Shown one piece after another: positions 44 to 59,701 of a DNA stretch of 64,000 nucleotides. How positions within the stretch are numbered: the first letter of the stretch is position 1; each line of letters opens with the position of its first letter. The notes beneath the pieces are model-generated. The model saw only the letters and a list, made by a program, of their open reading frames with translations. It searched no databases and was not told the DNA's origin. The DNA comes from a virus (Duplodnaviria; Heunggongvirae; Uroviricota; Caudoviricetes), in the IMG/VR virus record IMGVR_UViG_2574180019_000006. One strand, given 5' to 3'. Both the position numbers and the translations under genes were made by a program.

Positions 44-1177
44 TTGGCGCTAAAGAATTTAGATGACAGCTCGGTTCATGCTATTGCCCGTGACGATATC
101 ATCTGCCCCATTTGCAAAGTTGGAGGTGGTTCGTTCGTTAGAGCCACTAGGAATGGTGGCTATCACAAGAAGGCGCATTTCAGATTTACCGGTGAAGATG
201 GTCAAGGCCATCATCCATCATGTGATTTCTATGGAGATAGATTAACATCTGAGGTGAAGCAGCACCTTGTCTCATTCACAAAAGATCGAACAAAGTATTC
301 GCAGGTAATACGAAAGCTGGTCTGTGCCGGCATACAGGAAGGGATATTTACTCAAGAAAAAATGTGGCAGATGAGGGAATGGTTCTTCAATAAGCGAAAG
401 GATTCCACATTTGAAATATGGTTAGAAAGCGAGCATTTAGACTGGCTTTATTATATTAGTGGGTTACGTGATGCATATCTAGCATGGACAACTCCTGATA
501 TTCTACCTTTCGCGCCCATTCAGGTTACTGTCCCTGGTTTTTCTTGGAGGCGTGCGATTGACAAAGAGGTGCTAAGAGTTCACATCAAGACTCTCCAGCA
601 ATTGCGTGAAATTTCAGTCTCACATAGTGACATTGCTGTAATCTTAGAACACATAAACAATAATCGTGACCGCACAATTCTCGATCCATCGCATTTGGAG
701 GACGAGATAAGTAAGACCTATAAGCTTACTAGTTTTGTGATGGGCAATTACATTGAGTTTCAGACAAAAACGGTTAGCGACAGAGCATACGGGGAAGCTA
801 AGTTTCTGGCATTTGCAGCACTTTTGTTGTTCGTGTCAGATTGGGACCTCAACATTGCTATTGGTAAGTTTTCTAAGATTGCCAGAGTGAAGGAGGTTGA
901 TGACATGCTGGCTGGTAATTTCATTGGTCTTAATCCTTACTTCCGATACGACCTGGCTAATGCAGTGAAGAGATTGCAGGATAACTGGCCGATTGAATAC
1001 CAAGAGTTGGAGCATTGGAATGTTGAGAAATCCATGCGTGACGCATATGAAAAGTGGCGTGCGACAGAGCCTGAATTCGCTCCACCCCTATTGCCAGACT
1101 TGTATATTGCCAAACATGAGAAAGAAGTCGCACAAGACGAGCAAGTCAGGCAGTGGATTAAGAACGGGGATGTTTGA
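44..1177 (+). CDS. hypothetical protein, Cys/His-rich N-terminus (CPICK...HHPSCDF); may be 5'-truncated by the window edge
   Basis: Long ORF; track start at 44 is a TTG and the frame is open back to position 2. No motif I can assign. Confidence 0.5.
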   Translation: MALKNLDDSSVHAIARDDIICPICKVGGGSFVRATRNGGYHKKAHFRFTGEDGQGHHPSCDFYGDRLTSEVKQHLVSFTKDRTKYSQVIRKLVCAGIQEGIFTQEKMWQMREWFFNKRKDSTFEIWLESEHLDWLYYISGLRDAYLAWTTPDILPFAPIQVTVPGFSWRRAIDKEVLRVHIKTLQQLREISVSHSDIAVILEHINNNRDRTILDPSHLEDEISKTYKLTSFVMGNYIEFQTKTVSDRAYGEAKFLAFAALLLFVSDWDLNIAIGKFSKIARVKEVDDMLAGNFIGLNPYFRYDLANAVKRLQDNWPIEYQELEHWNVEKSMRDAYEKWRATEPEFAPPLLPDLYIAKHEKEVAQDEQVRQWIKNGDV

Positions 1178-1319
1178 GTGTAATTAGCTTAATCAATCAG
1201 TTGATAATGGCGGTCACAATTTGATTCTTTTCTATAAGAATCCGTTGATCGCCACTACTCCCCTTCCATAGCTGCAATCATACCCTTAAATATCAATAGG
1301 TTATGGTTGTTTATACAAA

Positions 1320-2060
1320 TAAGAAAACAACTAAATAACAGATCAACGAAACGTCAACGCTTTCACCCGATTTGGTCTAAAAAATTGACGTTTTCACACA
1401 TCACTTCTTATACCCGTAACTCTACGCAGCAGACAGCGCCACAGCGTCCAATTTTCACCACAGACGACCCAACACACTACCAACAAAAACACACGCTCAA
1501 AATCGCTCCCGTTGCGTTACACAACCATATAAACAACTTATTTTCAGGCATAACAAAACAACTAAATAACACACATGCCATTCCCAAAAACAACCAACCT
1601 CTTTATGGCAGGCTACCGAAAAGACCCACCTCTTCTCCCCAGGCTACCGGACAACCAACCTAACTTTCACAGGCAATCCGAAAACATTCATACGCGCAAT
1701 ACCCACGACACGCCATTCCCCAAACAGCGAAGAAACACCAGAATCACTGAAACCCCAACGAAGCCTGTAACCGCAAGGATTCTCTCAATCCCAAAAGACA
1801 CGAAACATAACAATCACGGGAAATACCATTACCCAATACACGAATAACTACAAAAGCCTTTCACACACTCCAGACAAACAACTCAAACACAATAACGAAA
1901 GGAATCGCCCACCTGCCATTACTCCATACACGGAGAAGAACAATCACCAAAACGACGAGAACACCCCATAGAAGAACCACCGCAAAACGAACGAAACCAC
2001 ATACACCGACAGAGAGAACAACACACCCAATTCACCAACAGAAATAGTCGCCGTATAGAA
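1320..2060. other. A+C-rich, G- and T-depleted non-coding tract
   Basis: Sampled 60-nt lines contain about 5-9 G each by eye; track ORFs here translate to low-complexity T/P/Q/N/H strings with no RBS. Confidence 0.6.
1590..1695. repeat. three tandem ~30-bp direct repeats (AGGCTACCG...CCACCT family), copy 1
   Basis: Units caggctaccgaaaagacccacct / aggctaccggacaaccaacct / aggcaatccgaaaac; same family recurs at 5119-5207. Confidence 0.6.
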
Positions 2061-2246
2061 CGTTCTGGAAGGAGTGAGCATTAACGCCTATAGAGAGGTT
2101 GAGACAGATAAAAACAACATGTATAGCGAAGAAGCCAGGTATGTATAAGTGGGGAGGGAAGGAGGGGTGTCGCCTCCTTTTTCGTATTTATTCAACTCCT
2201 GATTTTATCCCCCCGTAACACCCCTACGGTCAGCCTTCGGTCCATA

Positions 2247-2390
2247 CAGGGAAAAGGTTGCATCCCGCTACAGAAACGGCTGGGTTGCCTTCGGGGAACG
2301 GCTGGGGATTTTCAGGGAAACGGTCGAGTTGCCTGTGTGGATTTCGGGAAAAGGCTCGATGCCGGTTCAGGAACGGCGGCGTACCGGTAT
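2247..2390. repeat. six tandem ~22-bp iteron-like direct repeats (C[A/G]GGGAAACGGCT family), copy 1
   Basis: Units cagggaaaaggttgc / cagaaacggctggg / cggggaacggctgggg / cagggaaacggtcgag / cgggaaaaggctcg / caggaacggcggcg; related array at 5770-5897. Confidence 0.65.
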
Positions 2391-2711
2391 AGCGAGAGGG
2401 AGAGTTGCGGCTACCCACCTGTAATGTGCGGGAAGAAGAGAGGCGCTCACGTAGGCGGACTTGCTTACCGCTGGATTCCCTCTGAATGCCCAGCTACAGC
2501 GTAATTGTGCCAGACAGCCAACGGGGCACAATCGATTTCAGTAGGTTTTTGGGGAGAGGATTACTCTGCCACCAGCCACTTTCGGCCACTAAATCAGAAT
2601 AATGTAAAAAGTGTACTCGGTACTGAACCTGAAAACTCACTGCCAAAACCACATTCACCGGAATAAAATCCTTTTTCGCCTGTGCGTTATTGCGATAATA
2701 ACACCAACAAG

Positions 2712-2726
2712 TAAACAACATGTTTA
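2712..2726. promoter_or_regulatory. AAACA-N3-TGTTT palindrome (operator-like) upstream of the 2758 gene
   Basis: taaacaacatgttta; member of a recurring motif family. Confidence 0.4.
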
Positions 2727-2757
2727 GACGTTATATAAACGAAGTGAGGATGAAGAG

Positions 2758-2976
2758 ATGATTAAGATGCCTGTGACGGTTGAGGTGTGGGGCGTGGATT
2801 CCCTGGCTGAGTGTCTGGATGCAGTGGGGCCGGAGTTGTACCGCAAGTTGTGGTCGTTCGTCCCGGCAGAAGGGGAATCGCCCAAAGGGAAGGATATCTG
2901 GCACCTGCTGAGTGAAGATGAAAAGCGGGAGCTGGTGGACGCGGTACACAGCGAGTTCCCGGGCGACGAAGATTAA
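2758..2976 (+). CDS. hypothetical small acidic protein
   Basis: ORF with a purine-rich stretch (aagtgaggatgaagag) ahead of the ATG. Confidence 0.45.
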   Translation: MIKMPVTVEVWGVDSLAECLDAVGPELYRKLWSFVPAEGESPKGKDIWHLLSEDEKRELVDAVHSEFPGDED

Positions 2977-3114
2977 GAGTGAGGCCACCAGCACGGTGGC
3001 TTTTGTCGCTATTAACCTCCGGGCAGCGCAGCACCGTAACGATATACTTTGTGGCCGTTTTCTTACTGGTATTATTTACGCAATTCAGAAAACAACATGT
3101 TTAAGGATTGCGTT

Positions 3115-3444
3115 ATGTTTGCAAATATCGACATCAACCAAATCAAGAAAATGACTCAAAAAGAGTTTGACCAGTTTTATGAGTTAGAAGGTTGGTCTTC
3201 CACGCTGATCAATTCGCGCTGGGTGCTTGAGCTGATGACTCGTGATGATGCTCCTGCTTTGATTATTTGCGACCTGGGTGAAGATGCTGACTTTATGGAT
3301 ATGAGCGAATTTTGTGTGGACACATACAACCGCAGCCAGAAGTACTACTTCACATGCGATAGCGAGAATGACGTTATTTCTAAGGTCTATCTTCACCTCG
3401 TCCAGCATTGGGACGTTCAGGAGTTTCTTGAAGTATTCGAGTAA
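3115..3444 (+). CDS. hypothetical protein
   Basis: In-frame ATG at 3115 with AAGGA 7 nt upstream; the track start 3049 lies inside a repeated upstream element. Confidence 0.55.
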   Translation: MFANIDINQIKKMTQKEFDQFYELEGWSSTLINSRWVLELMTRDDAPALIICDLGEDADFMDMSEFCVDTYNRSQKYYFTCDSENDVISKVYLHLVQHWDVQEFLEVFE

Positions 3445-3572
3445 CCCCAACCAAAGCCAGCATTGCTGGCTTAATTTCTCTATAGCCGCAGGGAAGAACC
3501 TGCATATCGCTCATGCGCCTGATCAATATGCTTTGTAGCCGTTTTCTTACTGGTATTATTTACGCCATTGAG

Positions 3573-3587
3573 AAAACAAGTTGTTTA
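3573..3587. promoter_or_regulatory. AAACAA-G-TTGTTT palindrome (operator-like)
   Basis: aaaacaagttgttta, 11 nt ahead of the 3598 start, inside a ~50-bp element duplicated at 3040-3110 and 3530-3597. Confidence 0.45.
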
Positions 3588-3597
3588 CGGAGTTGTA

Positions 3598-3909
3598 ATG
3601 AAAAAATCATTGGTTCTTGGTCTGGACAAAGACCAGAAGAGAAAAGAGAAGCCTGCGCTGGTTGCTCAATTAACTTTGCTGGACATCGTTGCCAATGGAA
3701 CCTCTATTCGTCTGTTCCGTGAAACAGCGGTGTCTTTCGATAAAAACACCTTTACTCGTTATGTAATGAATGTTCGTCGCCAGCGTGGAAAAGGCTGGGT
3801 GGCATTTCAAAGAATGTGGCCGGAACATCAGCTCGAACTGGCTTTGATGGAAGTTAACCGCGTGGCCCAGCAAGAGATTCAGAGAGCATCAGTGATGGCA
3901 ATAGCCTGA
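3598..3909 (+). CDS. hypothetical protein
   Basis: ATG at 3598 preceded by GGAG; track start 3568 is less likely. Confidence 0.55.
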   Translation: MKKSLVLGLDKDQKRKEKPALVAQLTLLDIVANGTSIRLFRETAVSFDKNTFTRYVMNVRRQRGKGWVAFQRMWPEHQLELALMEVNRVAQQEIQRASVMAIA

Positions 3910-3944
3910 TAATGTGCAAGTGGCAATTAGTCGACAGTACGACA

Positions 3945-3972
3945 GCCCCGCCATCCTTACGGGGCTTTTTTG
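3945..3972 (+). terminator. rho-independent terminator
   Basis: gccccg-ccatcctta-cggggc followed by a T run. Confidence 0.6.
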
Positions 3973-3976
3973 TATT

Positions 3977-3992
3977 GTAAGTATATACTTAC
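3977..3992. promoter_or_regulatory. perfect 16-bp palindrome GTAAGTATATACTTAC
   Basis: Identical 16-mer recurs at 24623-24638; about 45 bp ahead of the 4036 start. Confidence 0.5.
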
Positions 3993-4035
3993 GATCATAG
4001 AATATAAAAATAACCAAAACACTACGGAGAGTGAA

Positions 4036-4431
4036 ATGACCGTTAAACGCGAAAAACTGACAGTTGATGTTTACTATGCCTCTGAAACCGCCGAAGGTAA
4101 GAATGTGGCAAAAATTACCGTTGTTACGTACAACACCGAAACTGGTGCCGAAGTCCAGGCCAGTACGATCGTTCGTAAAGGTGATGCCTCCGGCGGCGAG
4201 TACGCGACTCAATACCAGTCCATTCTCGATGCAACTGACCCGCTGCTGCTGAAAATCGAGAACTACTTCCGCCAGGTTGATGAAGAGGTGTTTGAAACCA
4301 TGATGAATATGGTTAACACCGTATTCGCCTCCAGCCTGAATACCAACACTACCTGGATTGGTCAGTACGGCCTGCGCATTACCTCTGGCATTCCTGCCGA
4401 CACCTTAATCCCTGAAAGCGTATTCGCTTAA
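4036..4431 (+). CDS. hypothetical protein
   Basis: ATG at 4036 preceded by GGAGAG; followed by a terminator. Confidence 0.6.
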   Translation: MTVKREKLTVDVYYASETAEGKNVAKITVVTYNTETGAEVQASTIVRKGDASGGEYATQYQSILDATDPLLLKIENYFRQVDEEVFETMMNMVNTVFASSLNTNTTWIGQYGLRITSGIPADTLIPESVFA

Positions 4432-4440
4432 TCCTCTTTA

Positions 4441-4468
4441 AATGGCGCGTAAACCGCGCCATTTTATT
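4441..4468 (+). terminator. rho-independent terminator
   Basis: aatggcgcg-taaa-ccgcgccatt then ttatt. Confidence 0.6.
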
Positions 4469-4548
4469 AAGCCCGATAACAATTTGTTTTCTGCCTTATC
4501 TGATTTGTGAAAATGATTTCACTGAAGCAACTTAATAAGGAAACCATC

Positions 4549-4923
4549 ATGGGACTTGATATCTATATCGAGACACAGCCTAAAAACGATCTGAATAACG
4601 AGGCATCCAGAAAGCAGGTTGCTTACTTCCGTAAGTTCAATGCGCTCGTTGGGTGGATGGAGCGCAACGTAGGTGAAGTCGAAAATTGTGAGCTTTTAGA
4701 ATTAACGATGAATGACATTTGTTTTCTGAAGGCTCATTTGATGCACATAAACGAAAGTAATTGCGAAGAGTACTTGCCTACCCGGGAAGGTTTTTTCTTC
4801 GGCAGTCAGGAGTACGATGAAGGTTACTGGCATGATGTGGGGCAGTTGAAAGAGCTTGTGGAAGATCTGATTAAGAACCACGACTTTCACAATAACAGAC
4901 TGACCTTCTGCGCCTGGTGGTAA
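4549..4923 (+). CDS. hypothetical protein
   Basis: ATG at 4549 preceded by AAGGAAACC; track start 4507 lacks an RBS. Confidence 0.55.
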   Translation: MGLDIYIETQPKNDLNNEASRKQVAYFRKFNALVGWMERNVGEVENCELLELTMNDICFLKAHLMHINESNCEEYLPTREGFFFGSQEYDEGYWHDVGQLKELVEDLIKNHDFHNNRLTFCAWW

Positions 4924-4925
4924 AT

Positions 4926-5069
4926 ATGGGCGATTTCAAGAAACGCCTGAAGGAAAGAGCCGAGATGGTCAGAAAGCAAAACGCCTCTTCTGTCATCAGA
5001 TACGCAAGGCAGTTTAGTCGCAACAACAAATCAGTTGAGGAAAAGATCCTTAGCGTAATCGTGCGATAA
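4926..5069 (+). CDS. hypothetical small basic protein (47 aa)
   Basis: ATG overlapping the upstream stop (taaATGg); translated by hand; below the track length cutoff. Confidence 0.3.
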   Translation: MGDFKKRLKERAEMVRKQNASSVIRYARQFSRNNKSVEEKILSVIVR

Positions 5070-5118
5070 TTATTAAGGCCATCAGCATTGGTGGCCTTAA
5101 ATGACCATCTTGTTTCCC

Positions 5119-5207
5119 GCAGGCTAAAAACACCAACCTCTTACCTCCAGGCAACCGACAAACCCACCTGTTCCCGTCCGGCTACCGCAACTTTCCACTT
5201 TGACGCC
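5119..5207. repeat. three tandem ~30-bp direct repeats (AGGCTACCG...CCACCT family), copy 2
   Basis: caggctaaaaacaccaacct / caggcaaccgacaaacccacct / cggctaccgcaactttccac. Confidence 0.6.
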
Positions 5208-5273
5208 TTATTCGTACAACGATAATTAACACCAACAAGAAAACAATTTGTTATTTACGATAAGGAATTAATC

Positions 5274-5756
5274 ATGAATTTTATCGCTACTGTAAACGCA
5301 CCCGCACATGGCAATATCGCTGTAACGTTCTCTGACATTGAAAAACGAGTACTTGGTGCATGGCGCGACAATGAGACGGTAGAACTGTCAGCACAAGAAA
5401 AATGCATTATTGCACGCGACATCATTGGCAATCGTCGTTACTCGCGGGTATTTGAGAAAGCGTATGTGGTAAATTCTGGATTCGGAACGTTCGTCTTTCC
5501 GGTGCGCTCCGGGCGATTCTGCCAGTCCAAGCTGATTGAGTTCGCTACGCAGATTTCTTTCTGGATTAAAACTCAATCGTCGTTCAAATTTTCCGACGAT
5601 GAAGCAGTATCGCAGGGGATGCGGATCGCCAACAATGCAATTAAATGCAAAAACATTACGTATACCGCTGGCGTTGATACATGGAAACTGTTTTGCGCTA
5701 ACTTTATGCTGAATGTATACGCAAGCAACCGCATCCACATCCTTGATGGCGTGTAA
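5274..5756 (+). CDS. hypothetical protein (160 aa) lying between the two repeat arrays of locus 2
   Basis: ATG with AAGGA RBS; AAACAA-T-TTGTT palindrome 20 nt upstream. Confidence 0.6.
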   Translation: MNFIATVNAPAHGNIAVTFSDIEKRVLGAWRDNETVELSAQEKCIIARDIIGNRRYSRVFEKAYVVNSGFGTFVFPVRSGRFCQSKLIEFATQISFWIKTQSSFKFSDDEAVSQGMRIANNAIKCKNITYTAGVDTWKLFCANFMLNVYASNRIHILDGV

Positions 5757-5769
5757 CTGAGAAGAGGGC

Positions 5770-5897
5770 CAGAAACGGCCCTTTCTCTATAGCCACCAGC
5801 TGCCGCAGGGAAATTTTCAGAAACGGCGAGGAACGTATTCATGAGCCGACGGGGAACGGCCAGGATTTTTTCGGGAAACGGCTGCATTTGCCTTTGT
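5770..5897. repeat. iteron-like direct repeats (GGGAAACGGC family), copy 2
   Basis: cagggaaattttcagaaacggcgagg / cggggaacggccagg / cgggaaacggctgcatttgcc. Confidence 0.55.
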
Positions 5898-7812: not shown

Positions 7813-8337
7813 TTAAAATGGAAGGATTCGTTCAACCCAATCGAAGAAAACAAGTATTTTTCTGCCGTCTTCTAACTTAAGAGTGACCTGGCAAGCATCA
7901 ACGCCTCTTGACACCCCTTCTATTTCACGACCGTCTGTCATGTAGACCCTTATAGATTGGTCGTTTTGATAAGCCTTGCGACATATCGCAAAAAAGTCAC
8001 GGCGTGATGGCTGATTGTCAACATAGTCTGGATGTATTGTTAGCCTACCTTTGAACTCGCGAGCAATGTCATCGATTACACCTGATTCAATTGTGCTAAT
8101 GCGCTCAAGTGGGAGTCTTATACGATTTTCTTTATCATATGGAATCGGGCATAAATCTAGCTTATTGCGTGAAGGCATTGTCCCCTGAACGTACATGCAA
8201 AACACCTGACCGTCTTCAAGCGTGACTCTTACAGGAATGTTGTTCTTCCGCCAGAACATAAGTATGTTCTCAGCATGTTCGTAGTCTCGCGGCCAGACTT
8301 CAGCCGGTATGCCGTAGGTGATGTCCAATGTTCTCAT
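7813..8337 (-). CDS. hypothetical protein (174 aa)
   Basis: ORF whose start overlaps the upstream gene end (8334-8337). Confidence 0.55.
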   Translation of the reverse strand: MRTLDITYGIPAEVWPRDYEHAENILMFWRKNNIPVRVTLEDGQVFCMYVQGTMPSRNKLDLCPIPYDKENRIRLPLERISTIESGVIDDIAREFKGRLTIHPDYVDNQPSRRDFFAICRKAYQNDQSIRVYMTDGREIEGVSRGVDACQVTLKLEDGRKILVFFDWVERILPF

Positions 8338-15619: not shown

Positions 15620-15681
15620 CTTCGTAAGACATGCCAGACCTAATTAAACACCCCAGAAAACAAGTTGGTTAGCAGATGCAG

Positions 15682-15735: not shown

Positions 15736-16368
15736 ATGACGGTCGAAAAAGACGAGGTAAAAACTCGCCTGACACCAGCGGAGTGGGCCGAAGCTGAAGC
15801 CAAATGGACGTCAGGCGAATATACACTCTCAAAGCTGGAGGAAGAGTACGGCATTCGTCGTGAAACACTCTCCAGACATTTCAAAAAGCGAGGATTAGAG
15901 AAAGGCGCGGACTCTGTTGGGAAGATGGTTCGTGAGTCTCTTAAATCTGACGCAGAGCTTCGCGCTAAAGCCCGTGCGGAAAAGATAGAAGAACGTCGTA
16001 CACGTTATGACGGCTGGGCGTATGCGTTGGGGCAGATGGTGATGGTCGAAGTCACTACGGCCAAACGTGAGGGTAAGCCTTTAGGGGCGATTGAGGATTC
16101 TCTCAAGAGCTTACAGAGAGCCAGTAATACCCTTGCAAAATGCTTTGAAGTTTCGTCCAAAGCATTGGGCATGGATCATGCGGAAAATGACGAGGAAGAA
16201 ATTCCGAACCTGGTATTTGGTGAGCTTACGCCTTCCCAGGTGGCGAAATTACGTCAGGAAGACGACGAGCCTGAAATCATCGATGACGAATTGCTTGAGA
16301 CGTTGGAAGAAGAAGCTCTAAGCGAATTTGATGCGACAGATGATGGAAGTGAAGGGGAGGACGAATAA
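15736..16368 (+). CDS. terS: terminase small subunit (putative)
   Basis: Directly upstream of the large subunit; N-terminal HTH-like segment and acidic C-terminus. Confidence 0.6.
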   Translation: MTVEKDEVKTRLTPAEWAEAEAKWTSGEYTLSKLEEEYGIRRETLSRHFKKRGLEKGADSVGKMVRESLKSDAELRAKARAEKIEERRTRYDGWAYALGQMVMVEVTTAKREGKPLGAIEDSLKSLQRASNTLAKCFEVSSKALGMDHAENDEEEIPNLVFGELTPSQVAKLRQEDDEPEIIDDELLETLEEEALSEFDATDDGSEGEDE

Positions 16369-59141: not shown

Positions 59142-59216
59142 GATGGTGTAGCTCAGCGGTAGAGCAGTTGGCTGTTAACCAACTGGTCGGTGGTTCGAAT
59201 CCACCCACCATCGCCA
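59142..59216 (+). tRNA. tRNA-Asn (anticodon GTT)
   Basis: Cloverleaf folded by hand: 7-bp acceptor GATGGTG/CACCATC, anticodon loop CTGTTAA, T loop TTCGAAT, encoded CCA. Confidence 0.85.
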
Positions 59217-59218
59217 AT

Positions 59219-59294
59219 GCCGGTTTAGCTCAGTTGGTAGAGCGCCTGCCTTGTAAGCAGGATGTCAGCGGTTCGATCCCGTTAACCGGCACCA
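59219..59294 (+). tRNA. tRNA-Thr (anticodon TGT)
   Basis: Acceptor GCCGGTT/AACCGGC, anticodon stem CCTGC/GCAGG with loop CTTGTAA, T loop TTCGATC, encoded CCA. Confidence 0.85.
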
Positions 59295-59614
59295 ACACAA
59301 CAGGTAAGAGCATTGGGCGAATCGGCGATACTGACCCACAAGGCCGTAAATCGATAGAGTCAGACCAGTGCTCTTACCGTTGTGAGGAAGTGCAGCTCTT
59401 TGAAGCAACCAGAAGATAAGCATCTGGCTTCACAACACAACGATAAGATCATTACGGTTAATCGTCGTTCATGTGCACAATGACTGGTCGAAAGGTAGTG
59501 ATCTTACCGTTGTGATGAATGCACAGGCTGATGTGCCGCAACTACAGTAGTGCGCGCTTTGCGGGGCTTGCTACAACCCTGTGTCGGAGTTCAGCACCGA
59601 CCATCACAATAGCT

Positions 59615-59701
59615 GGAGAGTAGGGAGCATGGTGCTCAAGCGGTCTTGAAAACCGTCCCATTGCGCAAGCGATGATGGTTCGATTCCATTACTCTCCGCC
59701 A
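59615..59701 (+). tRNA. tRNA-Ser (anticodon TGA), class II with long variable arm
   Basis: Acceptor GGAGAGT/ACTCTCC, anticodon arm CGGT-CTTGAAA-ACCG close to the E. coli tRNA-Ser arm I recall, T loop TTCGATT; D-arm is irregular. Confidence 0.6.

Follow-up and report, generated by a model that had tools for sequence, protein, structure and literature searches.

A conserved A+C-rich, gene-free tract in an SSU5/pHCM2-like phage-plasmid: a possible Rho-type insulator in front of the early genes

The stretch of 64,000 nucleotides (nt) analysed here, from IMG/VR virus record IMGVR_UViG_2574180019_000006 and referred to as the window, belongs to an SSU5/pHCM2-like phage-plasmid. It contains an A+C-rich, G- and T-poor tract (1320-2060) that forms the core of a gene-free region of about 1.5 kb (window 1178-2757), which is syntenic in relatives. 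The reading favoured for this tract, which is held tentatively, is a Rho-type termination/insulator leader that would shield the operator-controlled early genes and would contain embedded sites for a factor. The composition of the tract, its lack of structure and coding, its conservation, its position and the loss of RNA signal at its border are the observations on which this reading is built. Alignment A1 comprises 13 lineages across the non-coding region.

Positions 1320-2060 consist of 40.4% A, 32.0% C, 12.1% G and 15.5% T, against fractions of 0.285, 0.216, 0.243 and 0.256, respectively, for the whole window. In 700-nt windows the A+C content peaks with 72.7% at 1345-2044, about 7 standard deviations off the mean (mean 50.1%, standard deviation 3.1, runner-up 59.3%), and over 1301-2000 the GC skew lies between -0.41 and -0.58 and the AT skew between +0.26 and +0.61. 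The strong base asymmetry of 1320-2060, which had been pointed out in an earlier note made from the letters of this stretch, could thus be confirmed by sliding-window A+C content and skew as exceptional for the replicon. The skewed zone is slightly wider than the limits given in that note, as C-richness begins at about 1250 and ends near 2060; scored by a 300-nt window at ≥64% A+C, the zone covers 1230-2180. On a complete relative the same strand is richer in G than in C round the entire circle, so that the tract forms a local reversal of this bias. All 13 lineages retain the skew (A 0.34-0.38, C 0.28-0.31, G 0.14-0.19). A skew switch or replication terminus at the tract was rejected, the cumulative GC skew being monotonic round the replicon.

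The RNA of the + strand is predicted to be nearly unstructured. Its folding energy over 1420-2060 is -0.120 kcal/nt, compared with -0.288 +/- 0.042 for other 640-nt windows, and the consensus fold across lineages is close to 0 kcal over 1540-2080. No conserved helices with covariation were found in 1420-2080 on either strand, covariation being present only in a hairpin at 2150-2185 outside the tract. The search of 1-58000 against Rfam 15 at gathering score gave no family for the tract, and the best matches by E-value in 1100-2800 reached 14-19 bits against cut-offs of 40-70. The structured RNA proposed in the earlier note was therefore not supported. C is at least twice as frequent as G in 83% of the 78-nt windows over 1240-2060, compared with 2.5% window-wide, the longest runs being 1375-1798 and 1761-1959, and pyrimidine-C (YC) dimers occur at 14.2 per 100 nt in the tract against 9.6. 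Only three NTG triplets are present in 641 nt (0.47 versus 5.32 per 100 nt, an 11-fold depletion), 6-bp palindromes are entirely missing from 1420-2060, and start codons and Shine-Dalgarno sequences are nearly absent from the + strand RNA. No stretch complementary to the tract above chance was found elsewhere on the replicon that could serve as an antisense partner. Rho utilisation (rut) sites require composition rather than a specific sequence, namely C-rich, G-poor, unstructured and untranslated RNA. Judged on its sequence, the tract has what is expected of such terminators: at least 70-80 nt with C well above G, little structure and no translation.

Expression values, the sole set that was found, were taken from S1 Table of PMC9928086, which gives log2(FPKM+5) (FPKM, fragments per kilobase per million reads) for ten samples of E. 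coli LF82 carrying the phage Cyrano; the statements below refer to the Cyrano rows inspected in that table. The gene directly upstream of the region, CYRAN_102, shows values of 5.6-9.2, and CYRAN_103, an annotated open reading frame (ORF) over the first half of the tract, stands at the floor of 2.32 (zero reads) in LB and at no more than 4.27 in any sample. In macrophage samples CYRAN_103 stays low while the downstream early gene CYRAN_105 is found at 7.5-7.8. Across the junction the RNA signal falls from 59-585 to about 0-14 FPKM, these being per-gene values from one strain with strandedness not established (PMC9928086). An intrinsic terminator, i.e. a hairpin followed by a T-run, was not found between CYRAN_102 and the tract. 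The high values of CYRAN_102 next to those of CYRAN_103 near zero suggest that transcription originating on the left ends at the start of the region and that the tract is silent in these lysogens, which weighs against a constitutively expressed sponge RNA. The same table shows a moderate rise of the early genes in macrophage samples. The most induced gene among the Cyrano rows inspected was CYRAN_98, which codes for an S24/UmuD-like peptidase a few kb upstream (log2 11.3-12.3 in macrophages; PMC9928086).

The region is made up of the following features, in which the dispersed operator is the sequence AGAAAACAAnnTGTTT that recurs at promoters throughout the window.

1203-1255, + strand: left boundary block, GTTGAyATTGGCGGTCACAAATTGA..TTTCTATAAGA..CGTTGATCGCC, near-invariant in 13 lineages; the variable cargo gene ends just left of it
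1305-1340, + strand: promoter/operator-like unit 1, holding AAGAAAACAAC, the left arm of the dispersed operator
1349-1357 and 1385-1393, no strand assigned: 9-bp inverted repeat (AAACGTCAA and TTGACGTTT), read from the sequence, within the most conserved block
1420-2060, + strand: core A+C-rich, G/T-poor tract, non-coding, with + strand RNA predicted to be unstructured and a C/G ratio of at least 2
1517-1571, + strand: promoter/operator-like unit 2, a tandem operator with a full site at 1531-1543 and a left half at 1556-1568, 25-nt spacing
1588-1680, + strand: type-A repeats, three tandem 31-nt units, ACCcACCTCTT..CAGGCTACCG
1709-1739, 1823-1854 and 1912-1946, with a weak copy at 1574-1591, + strand: type-B repeats, GCCATTACyCmATAyrCGGAGAAGAAC
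2047-2065, + strand: conserved closing block TCGCCGTATAGAaCGTT, which ends the A+C-rich tract (alignment A1)
2095-2126, + strand: lineage-specific insertion, in the window sequence only among the 13 aligned (A1 columns 1001-1030), with an operator-like site at 2112-2124
2150-2190, + strand: conserved hairpin, terminator-like in the window lineage (stem followed by TTTTTCGTATTT; terminator scan)
2249-2400, + strand: G-rich repeats just downstream of the tract, six or seven GGGAAAaGG / GAAACGG units at a spacing of about 22 nt, kept in all lineages
2690-2757, + strand: promoter/operator of the first small early gene, with GATAAT, AAACAACATGTTT at 2713-2725, a Shine-Dalgarno sequence and the ATG at 2758; right end of the region

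According to the favoured reading, an RNA polymerase entering the region rightwards would make a C-rich, G-poor, structure-free RNA almost without start codons and Shine-Dalgarno sequences. With no ribosome trailing it, Rho would load and transcription would stop inside the tract, and the early genes would remain governed by their own promoter/operator units. The type-A and type-B repeats would probably bind a phage or host factor which tunes or overrides termination. What we infer here is that Rho takes part, in which direction the relevant transcription runs and that a factor binds. The position fits an insulator, the tract lying after the last + strand cargo gene and before the promoter/operator-controlled genes. 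As nearly all genes of the replicon are co-directional and cargo expressed in lysogens is located nearby, read-through into the early genes would be a real hazard.

A second copy of the type-A array was found by blastn in a comparable place.

5115-5190, + strand: second type-A array, between a hairpin and the promoter of a gene for a 160-aa protein (5274-5756)

This array, the sole other type-A copy in the window, aligns locally with the type-A repeats of the tract at z = 10-12 and represents the third-longest run in the window with a C/G ratio of at least 2. It is kept in six lineages and stays beside the promoter of the 160-aa gene even when an extra gene is inserted upstream. A repeat element with more C than G is thus placed in front of a regulated promoter twice, which is the strongest internal hint that such elements deal with transcription derived from upstream. 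The whole module of hairpin, type-A array and promoter (5068-5200) is conserved in all lineages, and the hairpin stem of the relatives contains a Chi sequence (GGCCACCnATGCTGGTGGCC).

Several points weigh against a Rho-type insulator. Rut sites need composition only, but the lineages share 68% identity over the tract, which moreover contains specific repeats, so that termination alone is insufficient as an explanation, and its length of about 700 nt far exceeds the requirement of Rho. In Klebsiella lineages the gene to the left is on the - strand and diverges from the region, meaning that read-through from the left is not universal and that only internally promoted transcripts would be affected there. 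The LF82 rows, moreover, report a per-gene absence of RNA and not Rho dependence, and the samples they cover are those of lysogens. Compared with known Rho-dependent terminators and rut sites (lambda tR1 rutA/rutB, the rho and tna leaders), the tract RNA is similarly C-rich, G-poor, unstructured and untranslated, the tract likewise precedes a regulated gene set, and the per-gene RNA values of LF82 fall with no intrinsic terminator found. The tract differs in that it has about ten times the length of a rut site, keeps its sequence from genus to genus, is rich in A as well and is built of specific repeats, its Rho dependence being only predicted. As a Rho-type insulator it would be unusual in its length, in the conservation of its sequence and in its construction from repeats; a sponge RNA or an origin would be more novel.

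Identities of 95-99% to the region were found in the Escherichia phages Cyrano, PhiR41_1 and CMS-2020a and in about 190 E. coli plasmids. In a sensitive search, 839 plasmids and 12 phages belonging to the SSU5/pHCM2 family aligned with the region from end to end (identity about 68%), the carriers being Klebsiella, Escherichia, Enterobacter, Salmonella (including pHCM2 and SSU5), Citrobacter, Cronobacter and Buttiauxella. The BLASTN check for conservation proposed in the earlier note was therefore strongly positive, with relatives across enterobacterial genera. Outside the SSU5/pHCM2 family no match to the region was obtained in the GTDB representatives, IMG/VR and the phage collection, which left no deeper relatives for a test of the skew, and the family of the neighbouring 131-aa protein is too narrow to reach more distant ones. 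To the left the region borders on a cargo slot in which the gene varies between elements, and to the right on conserved small + strand genes. The literature searched on SSU5, pHCM2 and phage-plasmids contained no mention of the region that could be found. It corresponds to no described element, with no Rfam family and no paper found in the searchable literature.

The tract is non-coding. On both strands, the ORFs in it differ in frame, start and length among the 13 lineages, three-base periodicity of variable columns was detected neither in the tract nor in the G-rich part, and the Prokaryotic Genome Annotation Pipeline (PGAP) placed no annotation in 1178-2757 in most of the relatives' records. 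The absence of a credible ORF, as stated in the earlier note, is borne out by these results. Some records do annotate ORFs here (CYRAN_103, SSU5_108), and in 9 of the 13 lineages a - strand ORF of 45-71 aa stays open over 1944-2081. That ORF has no Shine-Dalgarno sequence, as read from the sequence, and the + strand ORFs of 90-186 aa exist because stop codons are rare there. An overlooked gene, either for a + strand protein rich in Thr, Pro, Asn, Gln and His or for small hydrophobic - strand peptides, is thus highly improbable.

Despite the lack of coding, the sequence of the tract is maintained. The tract shares 68% identity with the SSU5 lineage, while the adjacent genes share 60-66% overall and 36-46% at third codon positions, and the identity expected from composition alone is about 29% (hand calculation). 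Since the tract exceeds the third codon positions of its neighbours, the sequence itself is constrained, beyond base content. Substitutions in the tract divide into 120 transitions and 126 transversions, A<->C being the commonest class; for the G-rich part next to it the ratio is 61:38. When two E. coli lineages are compared, no other part of the non-coding region is kept as well as the tract (83% versus 72-75%). The most conserved block of the whole region is 1305-1415, with a mean pairwise identity of 0.93-0.94 over 1330-1389. The decayed paralogue of a gene that had been considered earlier finds no support, given the missing coding signal and the purifying selection on the sequence; true paralogy is limited to the 31-nt repeat array shared with 5115-5190 and to the two promoter/operator-like units on the 5' side. 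It could also be imagined that the tract is a functionless relic of decaying tandem duplications of an A/C-rich promoter-leader, its conservation being mimicked by recombination between phage-plasmids. The internal repeats, the partial paralogy with promoter regions, the differing repeat copy number between lineages and the strongly mosaic identity to close relatives would agree with such an origin. It is nevertheless an improbable one, as the tract keeps 68% identity versus about 40% at synonymous-type sites of the flanking genes, several blocks are invariant over six genera, the skew is kept in all lineages and transitions are not in excess.

The repeats themselves depart strongly from chance, and judged from their sequence both types appear to be under site-specific selection. 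The type-A motif CAGGCTAC occurs three times versus 0.01 expected in the Salmonella lineage, and the type-B core GCCATTAC five times versus 0.017 expected. Type-B repeats (GCCATTAC..GGAGAAGAAC) are present in 4-6 copies per lineage, all co-oriented and roughly multiples of 45 nt apart. All 13 lineages have the copy at 1914-1945 in invariant form, and a type-B profile run across the 64-kb window matched the tract copies only. On the promoter side, unit 1 scored 8.1 bits (E 0.0016) in an nhmmer search with a profile of eight promoter/operator units of the window, compared with 4.9 for the best of 100 shuffles, and shares a 22-nt direct repeat with 1550-1571. Unit 2 is kept in other lineages as AAACAAGTTGTTTTCAGG..AAGAAAACAAG and scores weakly with the same profile (1.3 bits); its 25-nt operator spacing recurs at 15658/15683, before a terminase-like ORF. 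The segment 1349-1393 holds TTGACG-N18-TATACC, a weak candidate for a rightward promoter which the standard promoter scan did not call.

The hairpin at 2150-2190 comprises 10 pairs by RNAalifold, two of them with double changes from G-C to A-U (in 4 and 3 sequences). In 9 of the 13 sequences one further pair is G-U, a pairing that is workable on the + strand only and indicates that + strand RNA running through the region matters. The T-run behind the hairpin is present here and in Cyrano and is partial in Klebsiella and Buttiauxella; the Salmonella and Enterobacter lineages have CCGTAGAAATTC instead.

This layout would also suit a transcription unit for an unstructured non-coding RNA of about 650-870 nt, made during infection or induction only and reaching from the units at 1305-1340 and 1517-1571 to the hairpin at 2150-2190, with motifs that titrate or scaffold the FljA-family regulator, Hfq, Rho or GU-rich small RNAs such as GcvB. 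The promoter/operator-like units upstream, the covarying 3' hairpin with its + strand-only G-U pair, the conservation of unstructuredness alongside sequence as for a single-stranded binding platform, the number of co-oriented repeats far above chance and the FljA homologue encoded by every family member are in favour of such an RNA. The phage-encoded anti-small RNA AgvB mimics C/A-rich GcvB targets. Like AgvB and the sponge RNAs CsrB/RsmZ (for CsrA) and CrcZ (for Hfq/Crc), the tract is long and non-coding with several co-oriented short motifs, and its C/A-richness resembles CrcZ motifs and GcvB targets. In contrast to sponge RNAs, it is silent in the LF82 rows inspected, lacks GGA hairpins and has no Rfam match. 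An abundant transcript is not seen there, CYRAN_103 being at about 0 FPKM in LB and at most 14 in macrophages in ten of ten samples, even though CYRAN_105 reaches log2 7.5-7.8 in macrophages (PMC9928086), the samples being those of lysogens. By a hand estimate, the number of GGA motifs is close to that predicted from composition. An RNA of this kind is regarded as unlikely, and the same holds for the broader proposal that an unstructured A+C RNA, or a zone of single-stranded DNA, would capture the FljA-family repressor, Hfq or Rho and so flip the switch between maintenance and lysis, which would constitute an undescribed class.

Three related candidates were rejected. For the tract as a decayed array of operator half-sites, AGAAAACAA-like sites were not above dinucleotide shuffles. 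As for an array of promoter/operator paralogues, the profile matches 1305-1332 only, with weak matches at 1517-1543 and 1857-1881, and misses the bulk of the tract. Mimicry of the fliC leader of E. coli by the type-B repeats was dismissed because 31-36% of shuffled leaders equal the shared 9-mer ACCCAATAC, a level reached by chance.

A DNA site acting in cis during the lytic cycle was considered as well, either as a replication initiation or R-loop zone in which the displaced A+C-rich strand could not fold, or as a protein-binding array of G-rich iterons and type-A/B sites. Silence in lysogens would be expected of such a site. The site-specific conservation spans more than 1 kb of non-coding DNA, and four kinds of co-oriented direct repeats occur, including the G-rich units of about 22 bp, which look like iterons by their sequence. 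For these units neither covariation nor a coding signal was detected, and their motif occurs elsewhere in the window as a single 9-mer at 5873. The location of the type-A array between a hairpin and a promoter makes binding at the DNA level plausible, and the top strand has minimal structure and no 6-bp palindromes. In addition, the replicon has its own genes for a helicase, a primase, DnaE, a ligase, RNase HI and a UvsW-like helicase, a set of enzymes that would fit an R-loop-dependent start of replication of the T4 kind. The tract resembles R-loop origins (ColE1 RNA II, T4 oriF/oriG) and iteron origins (lambda ori, P1 oriR) as a promoter-proximal, strand-asymmetric non-coding zone beside direct repeats of about 22 bp, and RNase HI and a UvsW-like helicase are encoded by the element. 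Unlike at those origins, no initiator gene lies beside the repeats: the neighbours are small proteins without assigned function, no replication domains were found in tract-adjacent genes and the replication genes are tens of kb distant. There is also no skew switch at the tract, the 45-nt spacing of the type-B repeats is out of helical phase, and so strong a strand asymmetry is unnecessary for double-strand binding sites. The plasmid origin lies elsewhere, and its iteron is absent from the region. A DNA site is for these reasons possible but rather doubtful.

The complete relative NZ_CP103696.1 encodes a RepA of 364 aa with 16 or more iterons, GTATGCTGTCAGCGGT, on its flanks (L020 1-1650; L019 26880-27013); its repA is missing from the PLSDB gene table. 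The tract as the plasmid oriV was rejected, since repA and the GTATGCTGTCAGCGGT iterons are located about 39 kb away on this relative and are unrelated to the tract repeats.

Phage-plasmids of the SSU5/pHCM2 type occur commonly in Klebsiella, E. coli, Salmonella and Enterobacter, and resistance genes are among their cargo. To our knowledge, their switching from the plasmid state to lysis is almost unstudied. The region is the largest conserved non-coding element noticed in the examined stretch, evolves more slowly than the adjoining genes and lies between a cargo hotspot and the early genes. A Rho-type insulator, if true, would explain how the element tolerates the insertion upstream of arbitrary cargo that is expressed in lysogens, without the lytic programme being set off, and would make a useful modular terminator; a lytic origin or a sponge RNA would open a new way to approach replication or the decision between life cycles.

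The dispersed operator AGAAAACAAnnTGTTT has 16 occurrences in the window at no more than one mismatch. In many small genes it stands ahead of the Shine-Dalgarno sequence, usually 13-14 nt after a -10 hexamer, and at least 10 promoters are equipped with it.

2713, 3090, 3574, 4477, 5241, 15658, 15683, 46870, 52210 and 63417, and also 1531 and 2112: operator sites
7813-8334, - strand: FljA-family regulator, matching Pfam Flag1_repress over its full length (E 2.9e-80)

For the related 14-mer AAACAACATGTTTA, nine matches at no more than two mismatches were counted versus 0.87 expected. This dispersion points to a global regulon like that of P1 or KorB, possibly exerted via the 5' untranslated region. 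As in the dispersed-operator immunity of P1 (C1 operators) and RK2 (KorB sites), the operator is found at at least 10 promoters, two sites being within the region. The differences are that the bulk of the tract has no operator-like sites beyond chance and that the operator stands in the transcribed leader and may act on RNA. The FljA-family protein is encoded in the same 12 SSU5-like phage records as the non-coding region and is 67-99% conserved; a sub-threshold match to Hfq/Sm-like proteins was seen at residues 122-164. FljA is described as blocking translation of the fliC mRNA (PMC2652032). From its family, the protein may be either the reader of the dispersed operators or a repressor of host flagellin, and since the operators stand in transcribed leaders it may read them on RNA. 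A link of this protein to the tract is a conjecture.

Upstream of a terminase-small-subunit-like ORF (15736-16368), the segment 15640-15735 carries a double operator with 25-nt spacing followed by a hairpin and a T-run (GAGCGCATGGACGCGCTC TGTGTGTTTT). From this layout, the late operon may be controlled by antitermination.

The cargo slot (window 44-1177) is a hotspot. It is occupied here by a 377-aa protein (phrog_12525), in Cyrano by a coiled-coil protein, in Salmonella, Citrobacter and one Enterobacter plasmid by a GIY-YIG nuclease together with a 172-aa protein, and in Klebsiella by DUF262 and type I restriction-modification genes in divergent orientation. A truncated copy of the region was found in non-phage IncFIB/IncHI1B plasmids of Klebsiella with sizes of 190-257 kb (L004 5000-5780; L005). 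This copy consists of the left boundary and about 780 nt of the A+C-rich tract, adjoins DUF262/type I restriction-modification genes and ends in insertion sequence (IS) remnants. An independent module was rejected for it, because the same DUF262/type I restriction neighbours are found in the Klebsiella phage-plasmids, and it is regarded as a recombination remnant. Its presence in large plasmids indicates recombination between phage-plasmids and virulence/resistance plasmids. To the right of the region, identity to close relatives (L001, L002, L003 and L006) shifts from gene to gene over 2758-5756, with 99, 97, 73, 66 and 96% in succession towards L006, and these jumps indicate that the early region is a recombination mosaic. 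Finally, three tRNA genes are located at window 59142-59701, for Asn(GTT), Thr(TGT) and Ser(TGA), of which those for Asn and Thr alone were given by Rfam at gathering threshold.

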